Source: Fibrobacter sp. (lineage in GTDB: Bacteria; Fibrobacterota; Fibrobacteria; Fibrobacterales; Fibrobacteraceae). From it: a stretch of DNA of 64,000 bases. Within the stretch, counting starts at the first letter, position 1; every line of letters starts with the position of its first letter. The DNA is taken from assembly GCA_017503015.1 (NCBI GenBank), contig JAFVTX010000031.1, positions 14,022-78,021 of the forward strand, read 5' to 3'. Below are positions 21,757 through 46,641 of this stretch, one piece after another. The translations under genes were made by a program, and so were the position numbers. The notes under the pieces were generated by a model. That model worked only from the letters and a program-made list of their open reading frames with translations. It did not search any database and was not told the origin of the DNA.

Positions 21757-21762
21757 CTCCAT

Positions 21763-25000: not shown

Positions 25001-28000
25001 GTCGGCCAAGCTGAATCCCACATACTGATAGTTCATGATGGCGTGGTTGTTCCCTATAGAGGAGAGGATGAACACAGCCTTGTAATAATCAGATTCTTCG
25101 AAGACACTGCTGCTGTAGAAATTGTCAGTGATAGCCTTGATCTTGAGGGAGTCGCTTCCCTTGAGTGTGACAGAGAGCATGACCATACTGGAAGTAGTTA
25201 CGCTAGCCTTGGAATAGTTGTCTTTAGCGAGTTCAACTTCGGCACTGCAACTGCCGGCAGCATCAAGGCATACCCGTGCGGCAAGGTGGCCTGAAGTGTT
25301 CTCGTAAACATTCAATCTCCAGAAGCTGCTTCCATCGTCTTCGGCTCGGAACAGGAATCCCGAATTCTTGATTCTCGGAGAATCCTTTCCATAGCTAGAA
25401 GTTGCATGGGGCGGCTGGAACAGGGCCTTAAGTGTACCATGGATACCCGCATGTACGGTGCTCATGATTTTGACACCTTCCTTTGGGGCGTCCTTTGACG
25501 CCACAATGTACCCCTGGTAGGGGTCCCTCTCAACATAGGTCGTGTCGCTAATGTGTCCGCTGGCAAAGCTCCACTTGGCACTAGCTCCACTTCCGATGCA
25601 ATACGCGGTTTCCGTTTCTCCCGGCTTGCTACAGGCATGCCGGTCGTTGTGTTGAGCGGTTTTCCTGAATTCGTCAAAGAAGCAATGATTGTCATTCTCG
25701 CCGAAATGGGCGTAGATGATAGCGTTATTGTCCTTCACTGTGAATCCGTTTTTATCTTCGCTAGCACTGAACTTGGCACTGGAAATCGGATCGGTCGTGG
25801 GGCAGGTCATGCCTCCATTGTTATCGCAGGTCCAATAATTGAAATCCTTGTATAGATCCCTATCGATACTTATGAACACGGAATCTCCGTCAAAAACGGA
25901 AACAGGACAAACGACATCCTTGTTCACATAGTCGCAATCGGTTGTGTGACCTCCAGCAACGACCGTTACTTTGGGCGAGCCCACTATACTACCGGTAAAC
26001 TTAATACCAATCTTGCGGAGCTTCGCCTTAGCAGTAGCGCATAGGGAGATATTCTCGTTGACCTCAATTGGGGCCGATTTGGAAGCCTCGGGAATGATAA
26101 CCACGCACTCACCCGCATCATCGCCCTCCGTAAGGGAGAGTGTGCCTGTACCGCTGGTGACCACATTCCACAGGCTGTTCCTTGTTTCCGTAGAGTAACC
26201 CGGTGACCAGGAGGGTTTTACCCATTCCTTCGATGTGCTGTTGATGATTGGGCAATCGGGCCAAGCATTTATCATTGAATTTTCAGGACAAAGGTCGGCA
26301 TTCTCGCTCTTGTTACAGAAATCTTTGATGTCGTTTATATCGCTTACATTGCAACGCGTGAGACTTGCCGTGGAAGCCATGAGAAGCGTCGATGTCCATG
26401 GACTTGCCAACTGGTATGCATCTCCAGGTTGCAAGGTGAAGGTCACCGAGCCATTGGAGGCATCCCCAGCCGGCGTCAGAGTGAACAGCGTGGGAGTTTG
26501 GTGATTGACATCCACCCCAAAGTGGAATGTGTAAACATCATTCTCCGGCTCTACGTTGTCCTTCACTTGCAGAGTCCAGCCAGAAGGGACGGAAGATCTG
26601 TGCACCTTGACATTAATTTCGTTGGAGTGGGGTGGGAGATTTATCTTGACTTCGTGGGGGGCGCCTGCAGTGAGGTTGGCTGAAGGTTCCAAGAAGTTGA
26701 CTGGCGGGGCTGCACTCTGCGAGCCCTTGACCCAGACATAGAAGGGAACCGACTTGTAACCATCCGCAGAGGCGGTACAGGTATAAAGTCCCTCATCCAG
26801 TTTGGCATCCCCAGAAACCAGGTTGGAACTTATATTAAGCGAGGGGGAGCAACTATAACTAGCCGTTGCTTTGCTGACATTAGCTCCATTCAACGGAAGC
26901 ACATTAAAGTAGTCGATAAGTTTCCCGTAAGGATCCTTGGTCAGGTAAATGATACGGGGCAACACGATAAACGACTGGCTCAACGGGGAGATTCCATTGG
27001 CCGCATCAACAACCGGCACCATCTCGCTGGATTCGTATTGCGTTTCCAAAGTCACGCCTAACTGCGGAGCCATGGAAATGTAGTAGGGGTCCTTACCTGC
27101 GGACTTGAACACGGCCTGAGTATTTCCGCCTGCTGCTGCAGCGGCGGCGTTTACAGCGTCGGCACCACAGGGCTTACCCTTATCGCAGACAATACCGTTT
27201 TTACCCAAATCCTTCAACAATTCTCTGTCTGTAACAAACGCTGCATTTTCGAATCGATTGTTAGCACACTTTGCCGCCGGGAAATAGAGCGTTCCCGTAA
27301 GCTTGATTTTACTTCCCTCACTAAATCCCTGATCCGTGTCCATGAAGATGAACACATGCTTGATAGTTGCTGAAGTGGATAACTTATCCGCACCCTTCTT
27401 TAGGTAAAGCAAGACAAAAGAACCAGGATCAGAGGTGCCCATGATACCGTTGTCGGAGGCCGTTATCAAGGAGTTTTGTGCAGTAATTTGATCCTTGACG
27501 ATGATAACAAATTTTCCAACCAATGTTCCACTGATATTGTTCATCGCACCTGGTATTTTTACAACCAGATATTCCTTATTGTACAGCTTGTTGGCCCGAC
27601 TGGTAGAGTCTAGATAAAGCCTCGAATAACAAGCATTCAAGGAATCAACCAGCGTACTATTCCACCCCGTTGCAGTGGGGCAGGCATTCTTAGATTCTGC
27701 GAAAGATTCTAGCTCATCCAGGGGAATTTCTATGGGGTCATCCACAAAGTAATCTGCCCCGCATTTTTGTGTAGTTAGCTTATTTCCCCAAATTTTCCTA
27801 CATTTTTCTTCAACGGCATCCCCACAGGCAAAATCAGGCTTTGCAACCCAATCCGACTTGTTGTGCATGTTTCCGCCGATTTTGAACCAGGGGTTCACCC
27901 CGCAAGTCGGTCGGTTGGCGTCTCCGCTACTGCTCTTGCAGAAGGGGGATCCCGTAATTCTGGACTCTTCGTAATTGTAGAAATTATAGGTGGCGTTTGT

Positions 28001-29980
28001 GGCATCATAAAAATACTGTCCACCGACCTTGTACAGGCCTGCTGTTACGGCACTCTTGAAATAATTGTCAAACTTGTTATTGTCATTGGACCACATCGGT
28101 ATGGGGAACCAGCCACCACCCTTGTCGCCCTTCCACCCGCTAATGGGAGTTACATCGTACTTTCTCCAGTCGCTAGTGCTATAGGTCTTTTGTTCAAAAG
28201 CGACAAAGCCCGTTTGTGTTTTTGTGTTATCAAAAATGTAATATCTATCGCTGTTTACCGGTCGACCAGAAGGGAAAATACCAGAAACCGTGGCAGTCGT
28301 CCAATCTTCCCAGCCTTTAGAATAGTCGGTCCACTCGTTCAACCCTTCAGAACCATACGTATATGTGATGTATTCCCCATTGTCTTTAGCCAGCTCGCCG
28401 CAAACCAACGGCCCTTCTGTCGGGTTCTTCTTTATAAAATGACCGATATTACTCCCCGGATTCACCCTCTCCCAGTTGTCGGAATTATCACCATAAATTC
28501 TGAACCTCTTGTTTTCCGGACAGCGTTTTTTTCCGGTTTCTGTGTAGGTCTTGCTGGAAAGACTTGAATAATCTGACGACGCGCGGGCTGATTTGATATA
28601 GACCTCGGAGCCGGACGTACCCATAACTATCTGGTCGTAATTATCCGTATTTTCCTGGAAATTATTTATTCTGACTACGCTTTCCGTAGCGCATCCGATA
28701 AAGTCCTCATCTCCATAGTTACAGGATTTTGTACCCGTTAGCACGCATCCGATATTTTCTTTTTCGACCCAATACAGGTTATTACCGTTTGTCTTATAAT
28801 TCCTTGCACAAGCATAAGTCTTACCTCCATTATACCAGTCGTAATCCTTGCACTGGCATGAAGAATACGCCTGACATGTGCAACCACTTCTAGCTGTAGT
28901 CTTGGCCGTACTACCCCAACCCAGGGGTTGCTTTCCCGGCATCCATACATTGCCTTCCACAACAAAAGTACTATTGTTGTTAAAATGAAGAACTACCGCA
29001 CCGTCTTCATCAACACAGAGGTTTCCTTTTATCTTGGCTTTTTTTGACCTGTCATACGAAGACATGTATCCCTTTAAGGTAACATTGCTATCTATTAGCA
29101 AATTATAGTTAGCATCAGTAGTTATGCCTGTGGCCCCGAGGATGACATCTCCACTAAAGTAGGCGCTCCCCGACAGATCAAAGGAACTTGCGGTGGGGAT
29201 TCCTGCATCCTTACCCACAAACAAATCTTTGCCCTTAATACCGTCGTTTTGTGCAGAGAGATTCCCGCCAATACAGGTAAGCTCGCCCAGATTCATGCCG
29301 GATCCGCTCAAATTTGCGTTTCCCGTGACAATCCAGTTACTCGTTGCTGTCGGCGGGTTCACGCCTGTTTCTTCAGTACCCCAGTTTCCATTTACTACGG
29401 CCGACTCATAGTCCGTCCCCGTTCCCGAAACACCGCCTCCAAAGTATGAGTAGTCAAAGTCAGGAGGATCACCATCGTATTCCTCCTGTACCGTGGGTTT
29501 GTCTACCTGGTAAAGACCCGATATATTGAGAATGGCCACCTCGGTGTGCCTGGCTAATCCGTCCCGAGAAATGCCTTCAGAGAGAATTTTCACCTTGTAC
29601 AAGCCGTTTTGTGTAGTTACACCTGTGACCCACACATGGTGGTCCTGGGTCCCCCCCTGGACAAAGCTCCTTATCTGGTTATCCAGGTTGATTGGTTTCT
29701 TTTGGGACTTCGGTTCGTCAGTATTCAAATCATAGATGTACTGCCTAATAAGGGCTCCCACATCGTTGGCGTGGAATGTCATCCAAGCGCGAGTATTCTC
29801 GATACCCGCTACGGCACTCTGGTAGGCCTCCCGCTGCATCATACGGCTGGCACTGGAGTGGCCCTCGCTGGTAATCCACTTGTAGGTGGCGGTGGCCGCG
29901 ATGGTGGCCACCAGCATGAACATGAGAACGGTGACTAAGGAGACACCCGCTCTTTTCTTGTTTTTCATTCCAAATTTCAT
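22064..29980 (-). CDS. Giant PilX-N-terminal-domain protein (2638 aa), left cassette; candidate pilus-tip adhesin
   Basis: N-terminus KKRAGVSLVTVLMFMLVATIAATATYKWITSEGHSSASRMMQREAYQSAVAGIENTRAWM is PilX_N-like. Strong RBS AGGAGGGAATTATG. Very Cys-rich, with many Ig-like repeats. Paralog of 38082-45227. Confidence 0.8.
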   Translation of the reverse strand: MKFGMKNKKRAGVSLVTVLMFMLVATIAATATYKWITSEGHSSASRMMQREAYQSAVAGIENTRAWMTFHANDVGALIRQYIYDLNTDEPKSQKKPINLDNQIRSFVQGGTQDHHVWVTGVTTQNGLYKVKILSEGISRDGLARHTEVAILNISGLYQVDKPTVQEEYDGDPPDFDYSYFGGGVSGTGTDYESAVVNGNWGTEETGVNPPTATSNWIVTGNANLSGSGMNLGELTCIGGNLSAQNDGIKGKDLFVGKDAGIPTASSFDLSGSAYFSGDVILGATGITTDANYNLLIDSNVTLKGYMSSYDRSKKAKIKGNLCVDEDGAVVLHFNNNSTFVVEGNVWMPGKQPLGWGSTAKTTARSGCTCQAYSSCQCKDYDWYNGGKTYACARNYKTNGNNLYWVEKENIGCVLTGTKSCNYGDEDFIGCATESVVRINNFQENTDNYDQIVMGTSGSEVYIKSARASSDYSSLSSKTYTETGKKRCPENKRFRIYGDNSDNWERVNPGSNIGHFIKKNPTEGPLVCGELAKDNGEYITYTYGSEGLNEWTDYSKGWEDWTTATVSGIFPSGRPVNSDRYYIFDNTKTQTGFVAFEQKTYSTSDWRKYDVTPISGWKGDKGGGWFPIPMWSNDNNKFDNYFKSAVTAGLYKVGGQYFYDATNATYNFYNYEESRITGSPFCKSSSGDANRPTCGVNPWFKIGGNMHNKSDWVAKPDFACGDAVEEKCRKIWGNKLTTQKCGADYFVDDPIEIPLDELESFAESKNACPTATGWNSTLVDSLNACYSRLYLDSTSRANKLYNKEYLVVKIPGAMNNISGTLVGKFVIIVKDQITAQNSLITASDNGIMGTSDPGSFVLLYLKKGADKLSTSATIKHVFIFMDTDQGFSEGSKIKLTGTLYFPAAKCANNRFENAAFVTDRELLKDLGKNGIVCDKGKPCGADAVNAAAAAAGGNTQAVFKSAGKDPYYISMAPQLGVTLETQYESSEMVPVVDAANGISPLSQSFIVLPRIIYLTKDPYGKLIDYFNVLPLNGANVSKATASYSCSPSLNISSNLVSGDAKLDEGLYTCTASADGYKSVPFYVWVKGSQSAAPPVNFLEPSANLTAGAPHEVKINLPPHSNEINVKVHRSSVPSGWTLQVKDNVEPENDVYTFHFGVDVNHQTPTLFTLTPAGDASNGSVTFTLQPGDAYQLASPWTSTLLMASTASLTRCNVSDINDIKDFCNKSENADLCPENSMINAWPDCPIINSTSKEWVKPSWSPGYSTETRNSLWNVVTSGTGTLSLTEGDDAGECVVIIPEASKSAPIEVNENISLCATAKAKLRKIGIKFTGSIVGSPKVTVVAGGHTTDCDYVNKDVVCPVSVFDGDSVFISIDRDLYKDFNYWTCDNNGGMTCPTTDPISSAKFSASEDKNGFTVKDNNAIIYAHFGENDNHCFFDEFRKTAQHNDRHACSKPGETETAYCIGSGASAKWSFASGHISDTTYVERDPYQGYIVASKDAPKEGVKIMSTVHAGIHGTLKALFQPPHATSSYGKDSPRIKNSGFLFRAEDDGSSFWRLNVYENTSGHLAARVCLDAAGSCSAEVELAKDNYSKASVTTSSMVMLSVTLKGSDSLKIKAITDNFYSSSVFEESDYYKAVFILSSIGNNHAIMNYQYVGFSLADRDFKIYGIGWQSDDYGSECFDGPPSVKCSFAAVAVDGVVPTYGTGLGQSNDYQRPWVGHSGWFDSKDCSVSYSYVAGSATNDATVDSENGYYFDESGVGAHGYRDNNDQDVKTAYATLANCKYAKTDVLAWESTVDPAHCGPFWTGKFNECQADVSLLANERSVIAGETYTPTFTPAKDLRGIKDLAITLSNDYADVDLEVWLISNSAAWGGEDHESRHVRITGSGSTITKHFSVAASTSAYEDFADNAAGFDPENIVAMSFRNNGSNPVTITSAEALCKNSVRFDGCTVTRAGETEWKVTLSVPENADKLAKVRLKADVNGASYLSDIERDYAGLEYGIADPGAFANAGKTYTFSAQVYSELNNYTSEWVACTCPGNDCSIGSITCGDATLQHNKMNASNEIEYGEGNPEYSFELSGCPTKGCAYEVYLNGTKISECTNAQAASTGCSKNPHVVGPTQMAVSDNLYKYEVRNPAGSATEIKSLDACDQTFKVVEHVKDPVTCSITSGTTNASAADLGGSAEIPSNKISVSCPEGTCTYTVKENGSTVGSGTYSDTYGFSISNGAIEAGSHTYTASVTRDSEGAVDCSGSYTINYPLNLDCDSWTDPGASTPVAAGTTITPVKTKAGSSNTSYTGCGGNCTYNITKGGTSVYGGEVSSYDGYSATNTFTDANGSGKVTYTLTVSHPDVATTKSCNFDVTYASPTSVCHCADYCGSGCENNIVTGNIDQNPFTGCVFVASATRLDVNQGYTVNGSTPSNGQLCYDNATNCANALANYTAVDGGWYFNIANKYVSIRSSGYNPCAPIVAPSISSCPTVQVGIGKSASITPVAPACFALEECNYSIKKSGVSIASGTWRSGKISFTDAGATSAGNITYSLTLTNSKGSDSENCTVGYLGPISLTNGSSNVDVPCGVDIKAKATCSGNVVISCSGAFYKTVGTQSADKNNTLNYYAAWQNLNNTYTTSCDTDGVMKCSIGCW

Positions 29981-29989
29981 AATTCCCTC

Positions 29990-31366
29990 CTAGTCGCGGG
30001 GTCCGTTGCTTGGGATAGGTATAACTACAATAGTTTCGCCGGTTTCTCCCGCGCCTCGAGTAATCTGCAGCGACAGCTGCAAAGCCTTGATGTTCTGCTT
30101 GTCGGCCTTATGTGCTTCCGGGTTGTAAGCCGTTTCAAAACTGTAGTTCAAGCCGGGTACTTCCGTAACCTTCAGGTTCTTGATTTTCAGTATCGCCTGA
30201 GAAGCCTTCGGCGAATAGCAGGCAAAGGTAAATGCAATGCAGCCAGAAACATCTGTCGGTACGGTGAACCTCATATTACGCTTGCCTGTTCCTTGTGAGT
30301 TATACGGTGGAAAAAACAAAAAGTCGTCGAGCATTCTCTTTGGCGGGTCAGCGGCAGCGTCCATCAGGTAATTACCGTTAATATCCCTGAGCCCAACGGA
30401 CATGTGGTCCTCGCCAGGCACAAAGACCTGCAAGGGTATGTTGGGATCCGAGGACATGTTGGTAAAGGGTATTTCGAAGGATATCTCGTATGTGTGCCCC
30501 TTTTGGAATGTAATCAGACCCAGATTTTGGCAGTATTCCTTCCAAGATCCCGCATCGCCGCTTGATATAACAGCGAATGCCTGGTTCATGTTGTTATGGT
30601 CGGACTTGAGCTGTCCCTGGGCGTTGTCATAGTTGGTATAGAACTGCGAAAGCGTAATCTCTTCTCCAGCCCCCATTTCTTCTTTGCCATCGTTTTCCGA
30701 CTTGAAGTTGAAGAAATGCTCGTCGCCAGTCCTTGGTATCAGGCGGAACGAGTTCCCAGGAGTCGGGAAAATCTGCTCCTCGGCCCCGGTTACGGGGTTC
30801 GGAGCCACAACCTGGAACAACCCCACATTCGTTGAAATTTCCACAGCATCTGCGCGGGCCGCATCGGCGCTCCTTGACGGACACGCCTCTTCGGCCTCGC
30901 CCGAAACCGTACGACAACTGCGTTTAAGAACCTGGCCCTCATCAACAAACCAGCAAATCTCTTCCACAGCCTTGTAAAGGCCGTTGGCATCATAACGGGC
31001 CCGCCTAAAGTACAGAACACTCTGCCCATTAAGGGGAATCGTATCTATAAAGAATGAGGAAGAATCCCCGCTGGCCTTGTCCCAATAGACATCATCATAA
31101 ATACTGCTAAAGTTGTCACCAAAGGAACTTCCATCAGTGGCATCGCCCGCCTCTTTTGAACTCTTTGCCCCCATCTGAGATGCATCTGCTTTAAAAAGCG
31201 TTGCTACATTCTCGACCTCCTGGGTGGCCTTGAGGATATTCTGGGTGCGCACACGGAACTTGGTGGAGTCGCTGAAGGCGCGCCCCGCCACGATGACAAT
31301 AATGCCGAGGATGGCCATATAGACCATCAGTTCCATGAGGGTGAACCCGTTCTTGCGTCTAATCAT
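29990..31366 (-). CDS. PilW/GspJ-like minor pilin, left cassette
   Basis: Prepilin leader and cleavage/methylation motif MIRRKNG|FTLMELMVYMAILGIIVIVAG with Glu at +5. Position after the PilV-like gene, with an ATGA overlap. Confidence 0.75.
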   Translation of the reverse strand: MIRRKNGFTLMELMVYMAILGIIVIVAGRAFSDSTKFRVRTQNILKATQEVENVATLFKADASQMGAKSSKEAGDATDGSSFGDNFSSIYDDVYWDKASGDSSSFFIDTIPLNGQSVLYFRRARYDANGLYKAVEEICWFVDEGQVLKRSCRTVSGEAEEACPSRSADAARADAVEISTNVGLFQVVAPNPVTGAEEQIFPTPGNSFRLIPRTGDEHFFNFKSENDGKEEMGAGEEITLSQFYTNYDNAQGQLKSDHNNMNQAFAVISSGDAGSWKEYCQNLGLITFQKGHTYEISFEIPFTNMSSDPNIPLQVFVPGEDHMSVGLRDINGNYLMDAAADPPKRMLDDFLFFPPYNSQGTGKRNMRFTVPTDVSGCIAFTFACYSPKASQAILKIKNLKVTEVPGLNYSFETAYNPEAHKADKQNIKALQLSLQITRGAGETGETIVVIPIPSNGPRD

Positions 31367-31872
31367 CTGATTACCCCCGAAACTGAAATGGACTGGATGG
31401 AACCTTTGTAGGGCCAGCTAACCGTGACATTGACCCGCTTGGCGTAAACATGAGCAGCGCCATTTTCACCCACAAGAAGGCTACTCGAATTCGCCTCAAA
31501 TGTTTCGTCGCCGGAAACTTTTACATTGACTGTGTAAGTAATGCTTATGTTGTGTTGCACAATTCCTGGCTGACCTTTCCACTCCTGGACAATTTCTTGC
31601 GGAGGAAGGCTCCAAGTCCCGTCCTCGTTGTTGGTGAGGTGAGCGTCCGTAAAGCTCGCAAGCCCCTTGGAACTCAAATCGTCAATCACATTTTGGGCCA
31701 CCTCGGTAGCGCCATCGCGGCCACGGATACGCAACAAGGCGTCACGGTTGCCCGTCTGCAGGTTGCAGACCGCGGTGTACAGAAGTCCAAGCACCAGTGC
31801 CGCAACAATGACCTCCATGATGCCAAAACCGCGCTTGGGCTTGCACAAAACTGGTAAACGCTGAACGAACAT
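31363..31872 (-). CDS. PilV/GspI-like minor pilin, left cassette
   Basis: MFVQRLPVLCKPKRG|FGIMEVIVAALVLGLLY. The ATG at 31872 is chosen by comparison with the paralog; the ORF track start is 31911. Confidence 0.7.
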   Translation of the reverse strand: MFVQRLPVLCKPKRGFGIMEVIVAALVLGLLYTAVCNLQTGNRDALLRIRGRDGATEVAQNVIDDLSSKGLASFTDAHLTNNEDGTWSLPPQEIVQEWKGQPGIVQHNISITYTVNVKVSGDETFEANSSSLLVGENGAAHVYAKRVNVTVSWPYKGSIQSISVSGVIR

Positions 31873-31882
31873 TGTGGCCTCC

Positions 31883-32422
31883 CTATAGCTTCGACCAGTC
31901 ATCCGATCCACTCTTCAACTTGGATATAAACACATTTTTAGTCCTTTCTTTAACCGCGGCTGCATACAAGTCGCGGTCGCCATATTTCACCACTATGTAA
32001 CCCTCGTAAGGGGCGGTAGAAAGTCCTGGACGCGGGATAAAGGATGCCTGGGCTTCCGTCGAAGATACTAGGTTATAGCCATCAAGCCCACCAAAATCAC
32101 TAGTGATAATCGAGGACTGAGCATCAAGCACCAAACTATCGATAGGGGTGTCGAAATTGCCAGAGGCACACGACGCTCTGTAAGTTTTGAGCATTCTGTC
32201 CCCGTCATTTCGGACGCACAGAGAATCGTTAATCTGGCGAGCCTTGTTGGCAACCATTTCTAGGTAGGCCGCTACATTGAGAGCCGAATCCTTGGTTCGA
32301 GCATTAGCCACCGCACTTTGAAACCCGACCACACCCATGCCCGATAGGATGCCCATAATAGAAATCACCGCCAGTAACTCGACCAGCGTGTATCCCGCTT
32401 TTTTATGTGGTTTGCTCTGCAT
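31883..32422 (-). CDS. GspH/FimT-FimU-like minor pilin, left cassette
   Basis: MQSKPHKKAG|YTLVELLAVISIMGIL followed by ALNVAAYLEMVANKARQ (GspH/FimT-like helix). ATG at 32422; the ORF track start 32446 is a GTG inside the conserved leader. Confidence 0.7.
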   Translation of the reverse strand: MQSKPHKKAGYTLVELLAVISIMGILSGMGVVGFQSAVANARTKDSALNVAAYLEMVANKARQINDSLCVRNDGDRMLKTYRASCASGNFDTPIDSLVLDAQSSIITSDFGGLDGYNLVSSTEAQASFIPRPGLSTAPYEGYIVVKYGDRDLYAAAVKERTKNVFISKLKSGSDDWSKL

Positions 32423-32520
32423 ATACAGTTCCCTATTCAAAATCACCCTACGACCAAAAACTGGGTGGGCACACCTCCCTAAGCCCGGAAACCCAGTTTC
32501 CCTTCCTGCTTAAAATAGCT
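32413..32520. repeat. Inner inverted repeat, left copy (leader plus first 3 codons of the left cassette)
   Basis: The reverse complement matches 35554-35661 with 2 mismatches in 108 nt by hand alignment (90 nt uninterrupted). Identity stops abruptly at both ends. Confidence 0.9.
32456..32502 (-). promoter_or_regulatory. Identical leader hairpin and T-run in the left cassette 5' leader
   Basis: Mirror copy of 35572-35618 within the inner inverted repeat. Confidence 0.45.
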
Positions 32521-32528
32521 TTTTTTTT
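32520..32528. repeat. T9 (A9 on the coding strand) homopolymer at the inner edge of the left inverted repeat
   Basis: In cassette orientation: gcgAAAAAAAAAgcTATTTTAAGC. An A-tract directly upstream of a TAT-rich -10-like box. The right-hand copy lacks the tract (acatacaagcTATTTTAAGC). Confidence 0.8.
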
Positions 32529-32560
32529 CGCAAATAGTTCACATTTTTTTACAAAGGGGA

Positions 32561-32590
32561 CAAAAACCGCCTTTTCGAGGTAAAAAAGGC
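32561..32590 (-). terminator. Terminator after the central Rpn gene, insulating it from the left cassette
   Basis: Minus strand: gccttttttacctcgaaaaggc followed by ggtttttg. Confidence 0.6.
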
Positions 32591-32650
32591 AGTTTGTGAC
32601 GAGTGATGGGGTGGAATACGCTTGTTTAACGCAAGAAATGCGTCAAATGT

Positions 32651-33610
32651 TTATTTTAGCGCTTCTGCTTTGGCGATAATGCTCTTGGAAACGCCCTGGG
32701 ACCGGAGCAGTTCAATCACTTTGTCTATTCCTTTCTCCATTCCTTTCTCCATTCCTTTCTCCATTCCCTTTTTCATGCCTGCACGACGGCCTGCCCGCTC
32801 TGCGGCACGTCGAGCATCGCCGGCACTTACAAATCCCAGTCTTTGTCCTATGCTTTTCCATGCCATCTGCAATTCCTCCAGGCTTTCCTCGTCGATGAAC
32901 TCTCCTAAATATAAATTAATTTTGTCAAGAAAGACATTCTTGCCGTAATTCCCCAACATCCAAAGACGCTCTCCTATGGCTCGCGCCAAGTCTGACAGTC
33001 CTCGCTTATCAAAGGCATATTTCAGTATAAGCGCTCCAATCGCTGCTTCCACATTGTCGTCGGCGAGACACGATTCATCGTTCAGTTCAGACATGTTCAC
33101 CATCACGAGTTCAAACGGAAGATCTTTTCCCTGAAATTTTGCGCGATTCTTACGCTTGAAGGCTGCCACCGGGTCCCAGCTTCGTTTTCCGTTGTAGATT
33201 ATTATCGCTTTGGTCGGATACCAGCGGAATTCCGGGTCGTTTTTGTTTACCATTACATTGAACGCATATCGCCCCACCTGGTCGAGAAGTGCTCTGTCGG
33301 AAGCGGACTTGTGTTCTAACAGGATTCCCACGAACACATCTTTGCCCCTATACGCCTTCGCCGTGAACGCGAGATCCGATTCGCCCTTCTCGCCAACTTC
33401 GTTGTAAAAGCCGGGAAACAGCGTAAGTGTGTCGAGGTTCACGTCTTCGAGCATGGCATCTAGCTCCCTGTTGGCTTCACGTGCAAGGGTCAGGAGAGTC
33501 TTTGCGTTGGTCGGTTTGGAATAGATGTAACGGAAGAACCCGTCATGGTTCCTTCTTGTTGGATTGTTGCGTTTCTTCAAGTTTCTTGAATCCACCTGCT
33601 TGTTATTCAT
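32651..33610 (-). CDS. Rpn family recombination-promoting nuclease / putative transposase (YhgA-like)
   Basis: N-terminus ...RRNHDGFFRYIYSKPTNAKTLL resembles the RpnA/YhgA HDxxFK start. ILLEHKS nuclease block. C-terminal (GMEK)x3 repeat. Confidence 0.75.
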   Translation of the reverse strand: MNNKQVDSRNLKKRNNPTRRNHDGFFRYIYSKPTNAKTLLTLAREANRELDAMLEDVNLDTLTLFPGFYNEVGEKGESDLAFTAKAYRGKDVFVGILLEHKSASDRALLDQVGRYAFNVMVNKNDPEFRWYPTKAIIIYNGKRSWDPVAAFKRKNRAKFQGKDLPFELVMVNMSELNDESCLADDNVEAAIGALILKYAFDKRGLSDLARAIGERLWMLGNYGKNVFLDKINLYLGEFIDEESLEELQMAWKSIGQRLGFVSAGDARRAAERAGRRAGMKKGMEKGMEKGMEKGIDKVIELLRSQGVSKSIIAKAEALK

Positions 33611-33735
33611 TTCATTGTCGTGTGCGTCCCGTTAAACGGTAGGGCGGAATGGCCCTACATTGTATAAACGCTTTTTTGGGCCAAAACTTGCCTGAAAATT
33701 TTGTTTACGTACGATGTTTTACAAATGAAAGGGGA
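33611..33735 (-). promoter_or_regulatory. Conserved 5' flank shared by Rpn-like genes (copy 3)
   Basis: Plus strand: ggcggaatggccctacattgtataaacgcttttttgggccaaaacttgcctgaaaattttgtttacgtacgatgttttacaaatgaaagg. Confidence 0.45.
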
Positions 33736-33740
33736 TGGCG

Positions 33741-33781
33741 ATGGTAGGGATAGGAGATCCCGGCACTGTGGCCGGGATGAC
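33741..33781. repeat. Hairpin repeat with gatggtagggataggagat leader upstream of the central Rpn gene
   Basis: gatggtagggataggagatcccggcactgtggccgggatgac. The same leader recurs at 46688 and 46749. Confidence 0.75.
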
Positions 33782-34155
33782 AATGAAAGAGCGCGAGTAA
33801 AACGAGGAAGATGTTCGTCATGTTCGTCCTGGAACACTGGTGGTGTGAGCGCTTGCAAATGTTGTTTTTTGAGAATTGGACCTATAAAACGGCGCGTTTT
33901 GCCACTTTTATATGCCCCTGAAATCAAAAAAATGCCTCGGAGTGGCCTTTTTGAGGCATCATGCTCAGAAAAAGGGCCGAAAAACGGTCTGTTTTGACGG
34001 AATTCTGTTAGTTTGTATGGAAAAAGGGCATATAAGAAGACATTTTTCCCAGTTTTATAGGTACATGTCGAACGCACCGCCTTCTTGGAGACATATAAAT
34101 CGCCTCAAAAAACTGGTTTTATAGGTCCGTCGGGAGAAATCGGGGGTGTTAGGGG

Positions 34156-34244
34156 GTCCCGGCACTAGGCCGGGATGACAACCCCCTAGGGGAAGGGGGT
34201 GATGAAAGACACGGCTAGATGGCGGGTCGTGGCCCGCCATGACG
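34156..34244. repeat. Two hairpin repeats upstream of the recombinase gene
   Basis: gtcccggcactaggccgggatgac and ctagatggcgggtcgtggcccgccatgacg. Confidence 0.75.
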
Positions 34245-34345
34245 CCGTGGCTGCAATCAGGGGGAAGGCTTTCCCCCTTTTTTAGGTAGGAAAGAGTCGC
34301 TCCTTTTGGCGAAAAACGGGGATTTTGCGGGTGGTGTGACATTCC

Positions 34346-35356
34346 GTGCACACCGCTTTGCCTATTATTTGGGGCATGGAGTGGAAACGTTTGTCGGTGG
34401 TACAGCGGCACAAGAGTCGCGGGATAAAGACCTGGTACCTCCGGGAAAATTCGGGCGGCGTGATTTCGTACAGGTCGCTGGGGACCACGTGCAAGAGGGT
34501 GGCGGAGGAGTGCCTGCAGAGGCTTCTGGTGCTGCGTTTCGCCATGCCCGGGGAGGTGCTGGAGGGGGTGCCCATGGAGGGTGCTATGCGGGAGTTTCTG
34601 GAGCGTCCGGGCCTGAAAATGGGCAGCGTGGAGCAGTACCGCCGTATTCTGGAGCATTTTTCGGGGTGGTGCAAGGCCCAGCGGGTCCATGACCTGCTTT
34701 CTGTGGACGAGAGGCTCGCGCGGAAGTACTATGCGTCGCTCCGGGGGAAGTCGGCGCGGCACAAGTGTCGCGTGTGCGGGTGCTTTTTGAGCTGGGTTTA
34801 CCGGGAAAATCGGGTGGAGCGGGCCCAGCCTTTCAAATTCGTGGATTTTCGGCGGGTGGCGAAGGTGGAAAGGGACGCCTGGAGTGTCGATGAGGTGGAG
34901 CGCATCGTGGAGACGGCGCCTACGGCCGAGATGCGGATGCTGTGGGCGCTGATGGCCTACGCGGGGCTTCGGGTCCACGAGGCGGCGGGGCTTAGGCAGG
35001 CCGACATTCTGGGGGACCGTTTCCAGGTTGTGGGAAAGGGGGACAAGTTCGCGGTGCTGCCCATAAACGGGCGGCTCCGGCGGGAACTGGAGCGGTTCGG
35101 AAGCCTGGGAGACGGGCTGAAAATCGACAAGCAGAAATCTATTCGTGAAATCAAGAAGGTCTGCGCGCGGCTGAAGATTGAAGGCTGGGCGTCGAACCAC
35201 AAGTTCCGTCACAGTTTCGCGACGAATCTCGCGGCCAGCGGGTGCCCTGTGGCGGTGGCCATGCGGCTGTTGCGGCACAGTTCCAGCGCCATGACGCTGG
35301 ACGTTTATACCCACATTGTGCCCGCCGATATGCGGGAGTGGGCGGAAAAAGTGTAA
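34346..35356 (+). CDS. Tyrosine site-specific recombinase (XerC/D-phage integrase family)
   Basis: Catalytic pattern AGLRVHEA (Arg), HKFRHSFAT (HxxR), LLRHSS and LDVYTHI (Tyr). Alternative ATG start at 34376. Markedly GC-rich relative to its neighbours. Confidence 0.85.
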   Translation: MHTALPIIWGMEWKRLSVVQRHKSRGIKTWYLRENSGGVISYRSLGTTCKRVAEECLQRLLVLRFAMPGEVLEGVPMEGAMREFLERPGLKMGSVEQYRRILEHFSGWCKAQRVHDLLSVDERLARKYYASLRGKSARHKCRVCGCFLSWVYRENRVERAQPFKFVDFRRVAKVERDAWSVDEVERIVETAPTAEMRMLWALMAYAGLRVHEAAGLRQADILGDRFQVVGKGDKFAVLPINGRLRRELERFGSLGDGLKIDKQKSIREIKKVCARLKIEGWASNHKFRHSFATNLAASGCPVAVAMRLLRHSSSAMTLDVYTHIVPADMREWAEKV

Positions 35357-35373
35357 AAGTTGCGCCGAACTGG

Positions 35374-35505
35374 GCGCAAAAATCATGCCAAATACAGGTG
35401 GGCGCGGACCTGGCTCCGGTTAGCTTCGATTAGCTCCGGGTGCAAAAATCGAGCCAAATGCGGATAAACGCGGGTAGGCTCAGACGCAAAAACTGTGCCC
35501 AAATA
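35374..35505 (+). promoter_or_regulatory. Three direct ~20-bp iterons between the recombinase gene and the right inverted repeat
   Basis: gcgcaaaaatcatgccaaata (35374), gtgcaaaaatcgagccaaatg (35440), acgcaaaaactgtgcccaaata (35484). GCAAAAA cores are 66 and 44 bp apart. A weaker copy gcaagaaatgcgtcaaatg lies near 32625-32645. Confidence 0.5.
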
Positions 35506-35553
35506 ATGCACACAACGCGCCAATTCCTTTATTCTAAAGGGAAAATACATACA

Positions 35554-35661
35554 AGCTATTTTAAGCTGGACGGGAAACTGGGTTTCCGGGCTTAGGGAGG
35601 TGTGCCCACCCAGTTTTTGGTCGTAGGGTGATTTTGAATAGGGAACTGTATATGCAGAGCA
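35554..35661. repeat. Inner inverted repeat, right copy (leader plus first 3 codons of the right cassette)
   Basis: agctattttaagctggacgggaaactgggtttccgggcttagggaggtgtgcccacccagtttttggtcgtagggtgattttgaatagggaactgtatatgcagagca. Confidence 0.9.
35572..35618 (+). promoter_or_regulatory. Leader hairpin followed by a T-run (possible attenuator) in the right cassette 5' leader
   Basis: gggaaactggg ... cccagttttt arms enclose an inner gggc/gccc stem. Competing small palindrome ggaaactgggtttcc (35573-35587). Confidence 0.45.
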
Positions 35662-36188
35662 CATCGCATAAAAAGGCAGGCTTTACGCTAGTGGAAATGC
35701 TGGCGGTTATTTCCATTATGGGTATCCTTGCTGGCATGGGGGTTGTCGGTTTCCAAACCGCCGTGGCGCACGCCCGCACTAAAGACGCCGCCCTCAATGT
35801 GGCTGCCTTCTTGGAGCGCACGGCCAACGAGGCCCGCAAGTTGAACACCTCCCTGTGTATCCGCAATGACGGCACCAGCAAGCTGGTGGTCTACAAGTCC
35901 GCCTGCAATGCCGGTACCATGGGCGATGCTGTGGACCAGCTGGTTCTGGAAAGTCAGGTTACAGTTGTTGTTAGCGATGTGGATGATGTTGGCGGTGGCG
36001 GAATCAACTTAATCACTTCGACAGACGCCAAAGCCACGTTCAAACCGCGCCTGGGGCTTTCATCGGCACCCTATGAAGGGTATGTAGTCGTGAAGTACGG
36101 CAGTGAACGCGGAGCGGCGGTCAAGGAAAAGACAAAGAATTCGTTCAAACCCAAGTGGAGCCCTTCGGGGTCCTGGTCGGATTTGTAG
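35652..36188 (+). CDS. GspH/FimT-FimU-like minor pilin, right cassette
   Basis: MQSTSHKKAG|FTLVEMLAVISIMGIL...ALNVAAFLERTANEARK. Paralog of 31883-32422. Confidence 0.7.
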   Translation: MQSTSHKKAGFTLVEMLAVISIMGILAGMGVVGFQTAVAHARTKDAALNVAAFLERTANEARKLNTSLCIRNDGTSKLVVYKSACNAGTMGDAVDQLVLESQVTVVVSDVDDVGGGGINLITSTDAKATFKPRLGLSSAPYEGYVVVKYGSERGAAVKEKTKNSFKPKWSPSGSWSDL

Positions 36189-36198
36189 GGGGCCTACG

Positions 36199-36705
36199 AT
36201 GCACGTGCAGAATGACATAAAGCAATCCCGCAAGCGTGGCTTCGGCATCATGGAAGTCATGGTGGCGGCTTTGGTGCTTGGCCTCTTGTATGCTGCAATC
36301 TGCCAGCTACAGAAAGGTAACCGCGATGCGTTGCTGCGCATCCGTGGACGCGACGGCGCTACTGAGGTGGCTCAGAATGTGATTGACGATTTGAGCTCTA
36401 AGGGACTTGCAAGTTTTGCAGACATGAACCTCACCGAAAACGGTGACGGGACCTATAGCCTCGAGCCACAGACAATTGTCAGGGAGTGGAAAGGTCAACC
36501 GGGAACAGTACCTTATACCATAAGCATCGATTATACGGTCAATGTGAAAGTCTCTGGTGACGACGAATACAAGGCAAACACAGGGAGCCTTCTTTTGGGA
36601 GCAAACAGCGTCTCCCACATTTATGCCAAACGGGTGGACGTCACAGTTAGCTGGCTCTACAAGGGGTCCACCCAGTCCATCTCTGTCTCGGGGGTAATCA
36701 GATGA
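36199..36705 (+). CDS. PilV/GspI-like minor pilin, right cassette
   Basis: MHVQNDIKQSRKRG|FGIMEVMVAALVLGLLY. Closely similar to 31363-31872 along its whole length. Confidence 0.7.
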   Translation: MHVQNDIKQSRKRGFGIMEVMVAALVLGLLYAAICQLQKGNRDALLRIRGRDGATEVAQNVIDDLSSKGLASFADMNLTENGDGTYSLEPQTIVREWKGQPGTVPYTISIDYTVNVKVSGDDEYKANTGSLLLGANSVSHIYAKRVDVTVSWLYKGSTQSISVSGVIR

Positions 36706-38072
36706 TTAGACGAGAAAAAGCCGGTTTCACCCTCATGGAACTGATGGTCTACATGGCCATTTTGGGCATTATCGTTATTGTGGCTGGCCGTGCCTTTAGC
36801 GACTCCACTAAATTCCGCATACGTACCCAGAACATACTCAAAGCTACCCAGGAGGTTGAAAATGTGGCGACGCTGTTCAAGTCAGATGTGGCTCAGATGG
36901 GAGCGAAGAGCTCAAAAGAAGCAACCGTAGCTGGAGGAAATGACTCTTTTGAAAAAATCACAAACTGCACTTCCACTGCAGATTGCATTTACATGGACCC
37001 CAACAACGCTTCAGCGAACAATAAGGATTCTTCTTCTTTTGCAATCACAAGCAAGGAAAAGAATAAATATGACAGCATTGCGTTATTGCGCATTCGCTAC
37101 GATGAACAGGGAAAATACCAAGCGCTAGAAAAAGTGGAGTGGTACGTAGAGGATGAAGTTTTGAAACGAAGCTGCCGACTAATGCAAAAGATAAGCAGCC
37201 TTAATGTAACCGACGACCCATGTTCCAATGGGCCAAATTCAACACCTACACCTGTTGAAATGGCGACAGGTGTAAAAAAATTTACTGTCATTCCGGGATT
37301 GCCAAATATCCGCAGCAACGCTGCCGCAGGCTATACAGAAGAACAACTGTTTCCTCCTGGAGGGGGTGAATCCTTTAAATTTCTTTCTCGCTATGGTGAG
37401 ACAGACTATATCATACTTTCCATTCTGGATAATGGAACTTCGTCTACTTTGAGCGGATTCAAGCGAAATTACGACCTTACCGATGCGACAATAACCACAG
37501 AAAGTAAACAAATGAACCAGGTTTTTGCGGCAACAAACGAGGACTTGGAAGGCGATTGGAAGGATCGATGCTACAAGTTTAAGCTAGAGCCGGGAATAGA
37601 GTATGAAATCTCTTTTGATATGCCGTATCCTACATCCGCAAAAGACATGGCACAACTTTTCGTTCCTGGTCGAGACCACATGTCTGTGGGGTTCCGTGAC
37701 ATTAATGGGGATGCACCTGCAACAATTGACGACTTCCTCTTTTATCCGCCAACAAGCAACGAATCCGTTGGTAAGCGAGCTATGCGCTTTACAGTACCAG
37801 ATACACTAAAAAATCAGTGTTTGGCATTCACATTTTCAACTTACTCACCAAAAGCTGCAGAAGGGACAGTCACTATTTCAAATCTAAGGCTTAGGCGAGT
37901 TGCCAGTTCCACCTACAATTTTAATCCATCAGTTAGTTTGCCCATTAAGGACAAGAAAAATGTCAAGGCTTTGAAAATCAATCTGCAGATTGCTCGAGGC
38001 GACAAGAACCCCGGTGAAACAGGTGAAATTGAAGTGGTTATACCAACTCCCAGCAATGGCCCCAGGGACTAG
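36702..38072 (+). CDS. PilW/GspJ-like minor pilin, right cassette
   Basis: MIRREKAG|FTLMELMVYMAILGIIVIVAGRAFSDSTKF. N-terminal ~60 aa and the C-terminal ...VVIPTPSNGPRD are conserved with the left copy; the middle is diverged. Confidence 0.75.
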   Translation: MIRREKAGFTLMELMVYMAILGIIVIVAGRAFSDSTKFRIRTQNILKATQEVENVATLFKSDVAQMGAKSSKEATVAGGNDSFEKITNCTSTADCIYMDPNNASANNKDSSSFAITSKEKNKYDSIALLRIRYDEQGKYQALEKVEWYVEDEVLKRSCRLMQKISSLNVTDDPCSNGPNSTPTPVEMATGVKKFTVIPGLPNIRSNAAAGYTEEQLFPPGGGESFKFLSRYGETDYIILSILDNGTSSTLSGFKRNYDLTDATITTESKQMNQVFAATNEDLEGDWKDRCYKFKLEPGIEYEISFDMPYPTSAKDMAQLFVPGRDHMSVGFRDINGDAPATIDDFLFYPPTSNESVGKRAMRFTVPDTLKNQCLAFTFSTYSPKAAEGTVTISNLRLRRVASSTYNFNPSVSLPIKDKKNVKALKINLQIARGDKNPGETGEIEVVIPTPSNGPRD

Positions 38073-38081
38073 GAGGGAATT

Positions 38082-41000
38082 ATGATGTTCGGAATTCAAA
38101 ATTCAAAAATAGGAACGAAAGCCGGTGTATCCTTAGTTACCGTACTTTTGTTTATGCTGGTAGCCACCATCGCGGCTACTGCTACCTACAAGTGGATTAC
38201 CAGCGAAGGTAAATCTAGCACGAGTCGTATGATAGAACGTGAGGCGTACCAAAGCGCTATTGCGGGTATTGAAAACGCCCGTAGCTGGATGACATATCAT
38301 GCAAACGATGTAGGTGCGTTGATTAAGCAATATAAAGAAAATGGTAGTAAGCCAGTGAAACTGGATGGACAGTTGGCTGAGTTTATGCGTGCGGGACAAA
38401 CTTTTCATGTTTGGCTTACTGGCGTAAATACAGAAAGTTCAACATATAAGTTGAAGATCGTATCACAGGGCATTGCTCGCGATGGCGGAGCAACACATAG
38501 CGAAGTGGCGATTCTTGATGTAAATGGGCTATACCAGGTAAAGATTCCCTCAGTAAAATATACAGGAGAGGCGATATTCAACGAGGCTTTCTTTGGTTCT
38601 GCAAAAAATGGAATCAGTCTAGAAGTGAACTCGGCGATTTTCAATGGCGATACAAAGTTCAACACAAAATTTAATGCATCTGATTACGTTATCGTTACAG
38701 GAAATGTTAACGTTAATAGCAATACGAATGTAGGGGACCTTTATGTTAAAGGAAATTTATGCTCTTGTACAAACCTTAATGTAAGTGGCAACACCTATGT
38801 AGAAAGTAAGATGTACATAAATGGAACACATGTATACAATGGTGACATTTATGCAAAAGGAGGAATAGACCTATCAAAGAAAGGCGCAACGGGGTGTCAG
38901 TGTAACACTGGCTATGGAGGCGATTTTACCGTTGGTGGAAATGTTTCAACAGAGGGGGATCTCGTAATGTCACGGGCAACCTCACCAAATGTAAATACAT
39001 TTGGTGGAAATCTCGTCTTAAAAAATGGTGCAAAAATCGATTTCCCTACTCTTTCGGAGTTCTCGTATAGCACTGCAGGGGGATTGCCGACTCAAACACA
39101 TATTAGCGGGAATGTTTTTCTAGATGGTGGATTTTCAAACGGATGGTTCATGGGATATGCAAGAGCTGGTCAGGTGTCGCTTACCTCCGCAGGAAAAACA
39201 TTTTACTCATCAACCCCAATGTATCGGGTTTCTGACGCAAATCAGAATGTCGTGTATAGTTGGTGGAAAAAAGCAAATAACGAGCATCAAGATACTGATA
39301 TTTCAGGAGACGCAGATGGGCTTTATGCAATCGATAAAGGTGGCCGCAGCTACAAACTGACGGCGGTTCCCAAAAACACTTTTTGCAACAAGTCTAATTG
39401 CCAACCTACAGATGATTTTTCTGACACTTACTTTTGGGACAACGCACATTTTTACTGTCCAAGTTGGGAACAAAAGGGATATTGGGAGGGATTTAACTGG
39501 ATTACGTATAGTGAGCCATCTGGATGTGGAAATTGTTCTTGGTATCAAGAAAAAGCTGGTGTAGGGGACCGGAATGGCTACAGATGGAAATGCGATACAA
39601 AAGGAAAGCAAACAAGCCGAAATGAAATCTTTGTGCAAATCAACGGAACATACTCCGCTACTAAACCGGATACCACCGGCTGGGGAGCAGACAGATTAAT
39701 GGACTATGAGAATAAAATTACTGATGAGAATACGGGGTCGGGATGCGGAACATCAAATCATGTAGCAGATCCTATACAGTTCAATAAGGATCTTCTCACC
39801 CACAACTTGATGCATACGAAAGATAAGCCGATGGAATGTGATGATGCGACGCTTTGGAATTCTTGGCCAAATGATCCCTGGGGTCAGTTGAACTCCTGCT
39901 ATCAGAAAGCGAAGGCGGCCAATAAGCTTTATGACAATCAGTGGCTTTTAATAAATGTCGGCAAGGCGGTTTGGGCAACGGAAAATTCTCATTATCTGCA
40001 AGGCAACTTTATAATTGTGATTGAAGGCGATAATGGCTACGGTTTATATTTGCCACAAACAAGGGCTCAGGCCGATGAGTCCCCTTCCCATGTAATTCTT
40101 TATTTCCCCAATGGATATGACAAAACGCTCAATAGCAAAGCATCCTCTGGCCCAATGAATTATTTTGTCTTCAGCGACGGAGATTTAAAGAATACACAGC
40201 TGGGCGGAACAAAAATCAACGGCTCGGTTTTCCTGACAGATTGCCATAATATGGGAAGCGACCAAACGATTAAAATCGAGTTCAATCCAGACCTTGTCGC
40301 AGCCCTTGAAGGCTCCGGCGTCATCTGTACTAATGATGGTACTGATAAGTGTTCTCCCAACGCAGGTAGCTCATCGTCCGCCGCTTCTTCGGCTTCTTCT
40401 GAAACAATTTCTTTCGGTGGAACAGACAGTTACTATATCTCTACAGCTCCGCAGCTTTCTATCACGCTGGAAAGCCAGTATGCAAACAACGAAAATGTTG
40501 AAAATATTGCTAGCACAGGGGAAGACTCTAAGGGGAGTTTCGTAGTTCTGCCCCGTGTCATCTATTTGCCAACCGACCCACCAGGAAAACTTGAACATTA
40601 CTACAATGTAATTCCGCTTAATTCAAAACAAACTGTGGAATCCCAGTCCATTACTTGTGAGGGCGGAATTCCGACCAGCGGCAAGCTTTACGACGGAACA
40701 ACATCCCTTGTAGAAGGCTACTACACTTGCAATGTGTCAGGAACTGTTTCTGGAGTAAGTTCCACCGTCCCGTTATATGTTGTAGTTCGTGGAACCGATG
40801 CCACCACCCCGAAGGTTACATTTGTTACAGATGATGTAGAATTGCCCAAAGAAGAGGCTACAACAGTTCAATTAACGGTCCCCAATACCACAGGAGCCGC
40901 CCAAACCTTCAAAGTCAAGGTAGCCCGTAGCGGAACAGAGACTGGCTGGACCGTAACGCCTATAAACCCCATCGGAGCGTGCGATGCAAATAGCGAATGT

Positions 41001-45227: not shown

Positions 45228-45340
45228 AAGCAGGTAATACTTAAGGCTCCCCCCACATCAGCACCGGGGGGGCTTCCCTTCACCCCTAAACAATCAAAGT
45301 CCCAGGACACACCGTCCGGGGCTTTTTGCCGTTTTAATAA
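45228..45340. repeat. Outer inverted repeat, right copy (3' flank and terminator of the right cassette)
   Basis: See 21951-22063. Confidence 0.75.
45299..45335 (+). terminator. Terminator of the right pilus cassette
   Basis: gtcccaggacacaccgtccggggc followed by tttttgccgtttt. Homologous to 21951-21983. Confidence 0.65.
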
Positions 45341-45347: not shown

Positions 45348-45446
45348 CGGATCCTCGCCTTCGCGAGGATGACGAAGGGCGATCCCCGCCTGCGCGGGGA
45401 TGACAAAGAGGGTGTGCGGGGATGACAATGGAGGGGCGAGGATGAC
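45348..45446. repeat. Hairpin-repeat cluster between the right cassette and the Rpn-like pseudogene
   Basis: gcggatcctcgccttcgcgaggatgac, gatccccgcctgcgcggggatgac, then half-sites ...gcggggatgac...gcgaggatgac. Confidence 0.85.
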
Positions 45447-46640: not shown

Positions 46641-46641
46641 A

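Follow-up and report, generated by a model that had tools for sequence, protein, structure and literature searches.

Tyrosine recombinases invert promoters in Escherichia coli fimS (FimB/FimE), Proteus mrp (MrpI), and the Tsr-controlled promoters of Bacteroides fragilis. In Campylobacter fetus, the sap locus undergoes RecA-dependent inversion within hundreds of base pairs of conserved 5' sequence, and in the R64 shufflon (Rci) and the vsa locus of Mycoplasma pulmonis (HvsR), many sites serve to exchange 3' gene segments or silent genes. In this study, we have analyzed a 64-kb stretch of DNA from an uncultured Fibrobacter (contig JAFVTX010000031.1; referred to here as the window), in which a 3.0-kb segment, the core (32522-35552), lies between two divergent four-gene operons, operon A (22064-32422, minus strand) and operon B (35652-45227, plus strand). 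The products of each operon are three minor pilins of the prepilin type and one giant PilX/GspK-like protein, and the core contains two divergent genes, one of which encodes a Xer-like tyrosine recombinase. We have found that both orientations of the core exist in nature. It is probable that the core is a site-specific invertible element whose own recombinase flips a promoter end between the two tip operons, thereby selecting one of them. Among the papers searched, none described such an invertible or phase-variable locus from Fibrobacter.

The Fibrobacter locus resembles fimS, mrp, and the Tsr-controlled promoters in having short inverted repeats (9 to 30 bp in those systems), a dedicated PF00589 recombinase, and surface appendage or adhesin genes and, if our reading of the core ends is correct, in carrying the promoter on the segment. 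However, the Fibrobacter segment is 3 kb long (1.3 to 6 kb in relatives), carries the recombinase gene itself, and lies between two alternative operons, an arrangement that would give an either/or toggle rather than an ON/OFF switch. As in sap, two oppositely oriented homologous surface-protein cassettes with conserved 5' ends flank the segment; the sap segment bears the promoter and its inversion picks the expressed cassette, and the same may hold here. Unlike those of sap, the Fibrobacter breakpoints fall on an 11-nt motif (AAGCTATTTTA), the recombinase is encoded in the element, and the long repeat is dispensable. The original prediction, which was made from the letters of the window, had likened the locus to sap; the likeness holds for the geometry of mirror-image homologous cassettes but not for the mechanism, which in sap is homologous exchange in long conserved 5' regions. 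In the R64 and vsa systems, variation of a type IV pilus tip adhesin (PilV in R64) or of surface proteins likewise depends on short repeats and a tyrosine recombinase. In contrast to these systems, only two sites are present, with no third copy of the motif in the 64-kb window; none of 39 operon junctions revealed a "parked" operon with noncore DNA upstream, the upstream sequence always being a core end or the end of the contig; and whole four-gene operons would be switched from the 5' untranslated region. Features of an inverton that are seen here include bounding inverted repeats, an intact-looking dedicated recombinase, and both orientations with junctions at the repeats. What is distinctive about the locus is the recombinase gene inside the invertible segment, the proposed choice between two complete 10- to 13-kb tip-adhesin operons, the overlap of the site with a -10-like element, and the Fibrobacter host.

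The core is bounded by a 109-nt inverted repeat: the reverse complement of 32413-32521 equals 35553-35661 with two mismatches (repeat search and MAFFT alignment), and the longest unbroken identity between the arms is 90 nt (35572-35661). An 89-nt piece of the repeat has two exact copies in the window, compared with zero expected from 100 shuffles. The inner edge of identity lies at AAGCTATTTTA, where the start reads (A)AGCTATTTTAAGC, and the outer edge lies 1 base past the ATG CAG AGC of the flanking genes; the mismatches, A/T and A/C, are at +3 and +7 after AAGCTATTTTA. A near-perfect repeat of about 108 bp, with 90 nt unbroken and abrupt edges that end after the third codon, had been predicted, and our delimitation agrees with it except for an extra base at the inner edge. 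The repeats are the 5' leaders of the two operons, both of which carry what we term a type 1 leader: the left arm (32413-32521, minus strand) comprises the motif at 32511-32521, the leader, and the first 10 nt of operon A gene 1, and the right arm (35553-35661, plus strand) comprises the motif at 35553-35563, the leader, and the first 10 nt of operon B gene 1. The motif, at the inner edge of the repeat, is the proposed core recombination site. Repeat searches and open reading frames (ORFs) showed that the mirror-image duplication takes in all of 22064-45227.

When each species was represented by a single genome, a scan identified 11 Fibrobacter or Fibrobacteraceae loci (L003 to L013) with recombinases 60 to 99% identical to that of the window. 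Wherever flanks were available, the recombinase gene was located between two divergent pilin/giant-protein operons; the operons are 65 to 80% identical at the nucleotide level between species, and the core is 91 to 94% identical among the closest relatives. The motif was inverted at both core ends in all 11 loci, with the form AATCTATTTTA in L013, and it was the only sequence common to both core ends in every species. Downstream of the motif, two unrelated leader types, type 1 and type 2, were found, and in L004, L005, L007, and L008 the leader at one end differs in type from that at the other, which leaves an inverted repeat of only 11 to 12 nt. By comparison, recombinase homologues of 41% identity or less (L014 to L026) had no pilin clusters and no flanking repeats.

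Public contigs were gathered by exact-protein look-up of the first pilin genes, which returned dozens of contigs (two other exact-protein look-ups gave no match), and the census was deduplicated by contig; the exact protein of operon A gene 1 was found in 16 public contigs and that of operon B gene 1 in 23. We built the flipped junction in silico from the window alone, as the reverse complement of 32522-32921 joined to 35553-35952, and found it at 100.000% identity over 800 nt in contigs from ERZ28593846 (L051), ERZ12289771 (L056/L083), and ERZ14209545 (L058), and also over 615 nt in a MEGAHIT k141 contig (L057). In L083, the core end beside the second core gene, an Rpn-like nuclease gene (the Rpn end), is followed by operon B and then by the window's own outer flank, up to 46920; therefore, the core has been inverted in place. 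Sample ERZ14209545 contained operon A at 100% identity (L090) in addition to the flipped operon B junction. Both ends of the core were found beside each operon: operon B was joined to the recombinase end in six contigs and to the Rpn end in six, operon A to the Rpn end in seven and to the recombinase end in three, and a third operon type, operon C, to the Rpn end in six and to the recombinase end in two. The suggestion that the core is an invertible element is thus borne out by independent assemblies.

The position of the breakpoints identifies the likely substrate. When the contigs are aligned to the window, the match ends precisely at position 32521 or 35553. The leader of operon C is of the unrelated type 2, and the operon has only the motif in common with its partner, yet it was found on both core ends; since only the motif is shared in such heterologous-leader strains, exchange must take place inside it and is site specific rather than homologous. 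In the lineage of the window, flipped contigs keep the +3/+7 variants of operon B with operon B, and L044 keeps those of operon A with operon A, which is consistent with a crossover inside AAGCTATTTTAAG. The idea that recombination occurs at the flanking repeats therefore stands as far as inversion is concerned, but the substrate is the 11-nt motif at the inner edge and not the whole 108-nt repeat. Orthologous loci in which the two leaders have diverged as much as the coding DNA were to have counted against inversion; some relatives are of this kind, but they do not refute it, because relatives with unrelated leaders that share only the motif occur in both orientations.

The two ends of the core are not alike. 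The Rpn end reads ...GTGAACTATTTGCGAAAAAAA|AAGCTATTTTA and carries a promoter-like block (32522-32559, minus strand) that is found at this end only, with an A9 tract, a -35-like GTGAAC (32537-32542), and A/T-rich sequence upstream; the hexamer lies 19 nt from a -10-like TATTTT (32512-32517) that overlaps the left motif, and it is TTGAAC or TTGAAA in other species. The block is kept even where recombinase identity drops to 60%, and also in cores without the Rpn gene; in the 1.3- to 1.4-kb cores of L011 and L013, it immediately precedes the recombinase gene and is divergent from it. Directly upstream of the block in the window is the intrinsic terminator of the Rpn-like gene (32560-32600, minus strand), a 13-bp hairpin followed by a U run (-16.9 kcal/mol; z = -3.3), and none of 200 shuffles folded as well. 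The recombinase end (35357-35552, plus strand) reads ...GGGAAAATACATAC|AAGCTATTTTA and has a different conserved block (...TTCCTTTATTCTAAAGGGAAAATACATAC) and two 36-nt direct repeats; no -35-like element and no plus-strand terminator was found in it. The direct repeats, at 35372-35407 and at 35438-35473, are 75% identical (core GCAAAAATCnnGCCAAAT) and fall in the interval from the recombinase stop codon to the right motif; they have no other copy in the window and could be accessory protein-binding sites.

Based on these features, we postulate that the core-encoded tyrosine recombinase, which we infer to be the catalyst of inversion, would exchange DNA within the inverted AAGCTATTTTA at each end and so flip the core in place. 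The core end distal to the recombinase stop codon would present a terminator followed by an outward promoter-like block, A/T rich, with TTGAAC or GTGAAC, a 19-nt spacer with its A9 tract, and TATTTT in the motif. Inversion would move this single predicted promoter between the operons; the operon abutting the promoter end would be transcribed strongly, and the other would be silent or would receive only read-through from the recombinase gene. An expression toggle between operons appears to be the most likely function, and the cell would alternate between two antigenically and functionally distinct sets of type IV filament tips, each with three minor pilins and a giant adhesin.

Several observations weigh against this model. 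A scan with the sigma-70 consensus called no promoter at either core end; the promoter-like block was missed because its spacer is 19 nt, a length that is itself atypical for sigma-70, and the GTGAAC of the window is a weaker hexamer. A survey of TTGAAN-to-TAnnWT spacers in 0.86 Mb of Fibrobacter DNA gave no usable peak and hence no independent support, with an estimated half or so of the 19-nt matches being the switch junctions themselves. Promoter function is proposed from conservation and position only. As no plus-strand terminator follows the recombinase gene, the adjoining operon may not be fully off, and the hairpin and U run of both leader types hint at a further regulatory layer that the model ignores. 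The evidence for the two orientations comes from assembled public contigs; contigs L050, L062, and L071, from different assemblies, begin exactly at AAGCTATTTTA and may represent graph branches that arise from mixed orientations, although they are suggestive only. Finally, the operons vary in their partners (A-B, C-A, and C-B), which a simple two-state inversion does not explain.

One alternative is that the core inverts without choosing an operon, either because the operons have their own promoters in the motif or leader or because the switch governs the core genes or something else. The -10-like TATTTT is in the motif at both ends, the leaders are conserved across species and could hold signals of their own, and the stretch from the recombinase gene to the adjoining operon lacks a terminator. 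We nevertheless regard this explanation as unlikely: the core ends are asymmetric in every species, with the A tract and the -35-like hexamer at one end only, even in minimal cores; a strong terminator lies immediately upstream of the promoter-like block; and two unrelated leader types work with either core end.

It is very unlikely that the inversion is produced by RecA-dependent homologous recombination between the long leaders, as in C. fetus sap, with the recombinase as a bystander. Such a route would suit the 109-nt near-perfect repeat of the window, and there are signs of exchange inside leaders, to which we return below: the +3/+7 variants are uncoupled from operon A in L045 to L050, and in L009 the perfect tract is displaced into the coding region, patterns that indicate some exchange or conversion. 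However, the leaders in L004, L005, L007, L008, L044, and L051 are unrelated and have 11 to 12 nt in common, and type 2 leaders and operon C are still found on both ends; the breakpoints between assemblies are all on the motif rather than scattered along the repeat; and throughout the genus, this architecture goes together with a clade of dedicated recombinases.

We consider it highly improbable that the core is a mobile element, with 11-nt terminal inverted repeats, a tyrosine recombinase, and a "Transposase_31" gene, that was inserted in either direction between preexisting operons. Short terminal inverted repeats are present, the Rpn-like gene attracts PF04754 and PHROG "transposase" labels, and the cargo differs between species, with cores of 1.3 to 6 kb. 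Nevertheless, among the 11 species loci and all contigs examined (more than 40), the recombinase gene was always between pilin operons, with no empty site and no other context seen; the flipped state retains the same operon and outer flank; and minimal cores consist only of the recombinase gene and the promoter-like block, the Rpn gene being missing from the 1.3- to 1.4-kb cores of L011 and L013. That the flipped arrangements are an assembler's misresolution of the 109-nt repeat has almost no chance of being correct: Logan contigs (k = 31) do break at the repeat (L002, L085, L089, and L091), but the flipped operon B junction is identical in four assemblies made with different software, one of which (MEGAHIT, k = 141) used a k-mer longer than the repeat, and artefact is excluded for operon C, which was found with both core ends in independent assemblies, because the 11 to 12 nt that it has in common with its partner is shorter than any assembly k-mer.

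Inversion by the core recombinase remains the preferred reading, and the variable pairing of operons may point to a wider role for the site. Near-identical strains carry A-B (window), C-A (L044), and C-B (L051/L082) pairs. Operon types A, B, and C are 97 to 100% identical between samples, and each occurs on either core end; at or near the motif, identity to the window falls from 99.98% to 97 to 98% or less. For example, L082 (ERZ28593846 scaffold_2408), compared with window positions 32266-45232, is 99.98% identical over operon B and 100% identical over the adjoining 400 nt of core, whereas its recombinase gene is only 97 to 98% identical (and is split into 194 and 103 amino acids [aa] in gene calls) and its partner is operon C rather than operon A. 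This mosaic identity points to recent recombination between strains at the locus. Either the assemblies miss some of the operons and cores of a genome, or strains have swapped operons with one breakpoint at the site. It is possible, if on balance doubtful, that the motif and recombinase also exchange whole 10- to 13-kb adhesin operons, as a cassette system intermediate between shufflons and integrons. For operon C, the outer flank (L061) matched neither flank of the window, but as only about 300 nt was compared, this result is uninformative. L092 (ERZ12302818 NODE_4807) and L003 to L009 have recombinases of one 90%-identity cluster between many operon types, those of L092 including operons that encode proteins of 202/207/517/2606 aa and 200/174/463/2752 aa, and a search with the operon C pilin gave 38 clusters (90% identity) of first-pilin homologues, a repertoire that resembles a set of serotypes.

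The leaders have a history different from that of the genes they precede. Within the genome, the leaders of operons A and B are 98% identical, but the operon B leader and that of its orthologue in L005 are only 77% identical, whereas the coding sequence of operon B shows the opposite trend, with 64% identity to paralogue A and 94% identity to the L005 orthologue. Concerted evolution, for which within-genome identity greater than between-genome identity had been proposed as a check, is therefore indicated. In addition, each leader type is conserved across species, the first 50 nt or so of type 2 being nearly invariant, which implies constraint at the nucleotide level. Homogenization and nucleotide constraint had been offered as two explanations for the identical leaders; both operate. 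Operon A carries the +3/+7 variants of operon B in L045 to L050, and the perfect tract of L009 is shifted downstream, into the coding region; both are further signs of exchange inside the leaders. We suggest that the 109-nt near-identity is secondary to the switch: both operons here happen to bear a type 1 leader, and conversion, or crossovers at sites deeper within the leader, would have homogenized the copies in this lineage.

The type 1 leader contains a long hairpin followed by UUUUU (35575-35618, plus strand; 32456-32499, minus strand; -31 kcal/mol; z = -2.05) that resembles a terminator or attenuator. A GC-rich hairpin, in this case with GTTTGTC after it, is present in the unrelated type 2 leader as well. 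These hairpins may form an attenuation or antitermination layer. A structured RNA was considered as the cause of leader conservation but was not supported, since RNAalifold found essentially no compensatory changes among eight type 1 leaders (one pair) and nine type 2 leaders (no pairs). The window gave no match to Rfam at gathering thresholds.

The layout of operons A and B resembles that of a minor-pilin tip set. Operon A (all minus strand) encodes a 179-aa GspH/FimT-like minor pilin (gene 1, 31883-32422); a 169-aa prepilin-like protein with a KRG|FGIMEV motif (gene 2, 31363-31872), identified as an ORF and also called as a gene in public contigs; a prepilin-type minor pilin of 458 aa in a GspJ/PilW-like operon position (gene 3, 29990-31366; PF07963, E value of 1e-7; weak GspJ/GspH NCBIfam matches); and a 2638-aa putative pilus-tip adhesin (gene 4, 22064-29980) with a PilX/GspK-like hydrophobic N terminus (G-VSLVT) that lacks a Glu at +5. 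A Pfam scan found no domain in the last of these, and its operon B paralogue has a weak PilX_N match. In operon B (all plus strand), the corresponding products are a 178-aa GspH/FimT-like minor pilin (gene 1, 35652-36188), a 168-aa prepilin-like protein (gene 2, 36199-36705), a 456-aa prepilin-type minor pilin (gene 3, 36702-38072; PF07963), and a 2381-aa giant PilX/GspK-like protein (gene 4, 38082-45227). The N-terminal methylation motif (PF07963, N_methyl) exceeded its cutoff in genes 1 and 3 of each operon, whereas the gene 2 match was weak; all other family matches of these proteins, which include GspH, GspJ, PilX_N, and Verru_Chthon protein D, fell below curated cutoffs, the PilX_N match of operon B gene 4, for example, scoring 18 bits (E value of 0.002) against a cutoff of 25.5 bits. 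The GspH/FimT-like label given to the first genes in the original prediction is thus weakly supported: PF07963 is present, but the GspH matches are subthreshold (NCBIfam E values of 5e-10 to 8e-9). Four co-oriented genes are likewise found in GspH-I-J-K (type II secretion), FimU-PilV-W-X (type IV pili), and the Verru_Chthon cassettes (TIGR02596 and relatives), in which, as here, the first three products have prepilin-type N termini and the last is the largest, PilX/GspK-like, and without Glu5. The Fibrobacter operons differ from these known sets in that the fourth protein has 2,400 to 2,600 aa without recognized domains. Among the nine neighboring ORFs scanned, we found no genes for the assembly of type IV pili or of a type II secretion system.

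That the first genes are old paralogs, with adjacent codons saturated with synonymous changes, was fully upheld. Past the repeat, the first genes of operons A and B share 63% nucleotide identity and 62% amino acid identity, with a synonymous difference (pS) of 0.78; consequently, dS is saturated and cannot be defined. The third base is the same in only 46 of 109 codons for identical residues. Amino acid identities between the operons for genes 1 to 4 are 62, 75, 53, and 33%, respectively. Base composition also differs, operon B having a GC content of 42 to 46%, below the 50 to 58% of the flanking chromosome, operon A being near 50%, and the recombinase region having 56 to 59% with a strong positive GC skew (37001-45000 compared with 34001-36000, the latter being the recombinase region); this suggests that the operons have different histories.

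Within the core, the recombinase gene (34376-35356, plus strand) points toward operon B and encodes a 326-aa protein (PF00589; E value of 7e-18), or one of 336 aa if, as in some gene callers, the start is placed at 34346. Arg199, Lys221/224, His275, Arg278, His301, and Tyr311 are invariant among 18 homologues and were assigned by motif as the catalytic set. The nearest solved structures are XerC-like, XerD, and XerA. The best NCBIfam matches are Xer models far below the cutoff, there is no close homologue in any curated family, and the source annotations give only "site-specific integrase" or "XerD." A 443-aa antisense ORF (34055-35386, minus strand) over this GC-rich gene is annotated in its place in some public assemblies (419 aa in L054 and L055) and is very probably spurious. 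The other gene (32651-33610, minus strand), regarded as cargo, points toward operon A and encodes a 319-aa Rpn/YhgA-like PD-(D/E)XK nuclease (PF04754; E value of 1.5e-14). Near its C terminus, 4.1 copies of a 12-nt tandem repeat (32719-32767) encode (GMEK)n; judging from gaps in the alignments of L059 and L060, the copy number may differ between assemblies, and in the homologue from L009 an (EGRA)n repeat occupies the matching place. The intergenic region between the two divergent genes (33611-34375) contains GC-rich hairpin elements and shows patchy indels among strains. These REP-like hairpins end in GGATGACA, at 33740-33790 and 34150-34190, and account for most between-strain indels of the core; short repeats related to them border both operons on the outside, at 45350-45408 (a 31-nt tandem), 21762-21829, 46541-46644, and 20712-20760.

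Besides the PF04754 gene of the core, three PD-(D/E)XK_2 (PF12784) "nuclease family transposase" genes are present in the window (16669-17688, minus strand; 20818-21756, plus strand; and 45464-46180, minus strand), one of them just outside each operon and convergent with it, so that the mirror symmetry reaches beyond the operons; the copy beside operon B is split or truncated in the window (gene calls of 216 and 107 aa) and intact in L083 (323 aa). To the left of operon A are more large putative surface proteins (10018-14475, 14694-16529, and 19294-20619), one of 1485 aa with a PA14 domain and two with PKD domains.

In the rumen and hindgut, members of the genus Fibrobacter are major degraders of fibre, and attachment to the substrate is a necessity for them. 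Pili and surface adhesins feature in published models of how F. succinogenes degrades cellulose (PMC4668043). Together, the recombinase and the 11-nt site constitute a compact, previously undescribed pair that is directly testable, and the switch is likely to be a recurrent cause of contig breaks in metagenome assemblies. Since the switch is conserved across the genus and the operons are hypervariable, the locus is likely to be a hot spot of strain-level diversity. If the proposed mechanism is correct, single lineages would gain two adhesion or antigenic states through switchable tip sets, which would bear on attachment to substrate or host and on escape from phages and host immunity.

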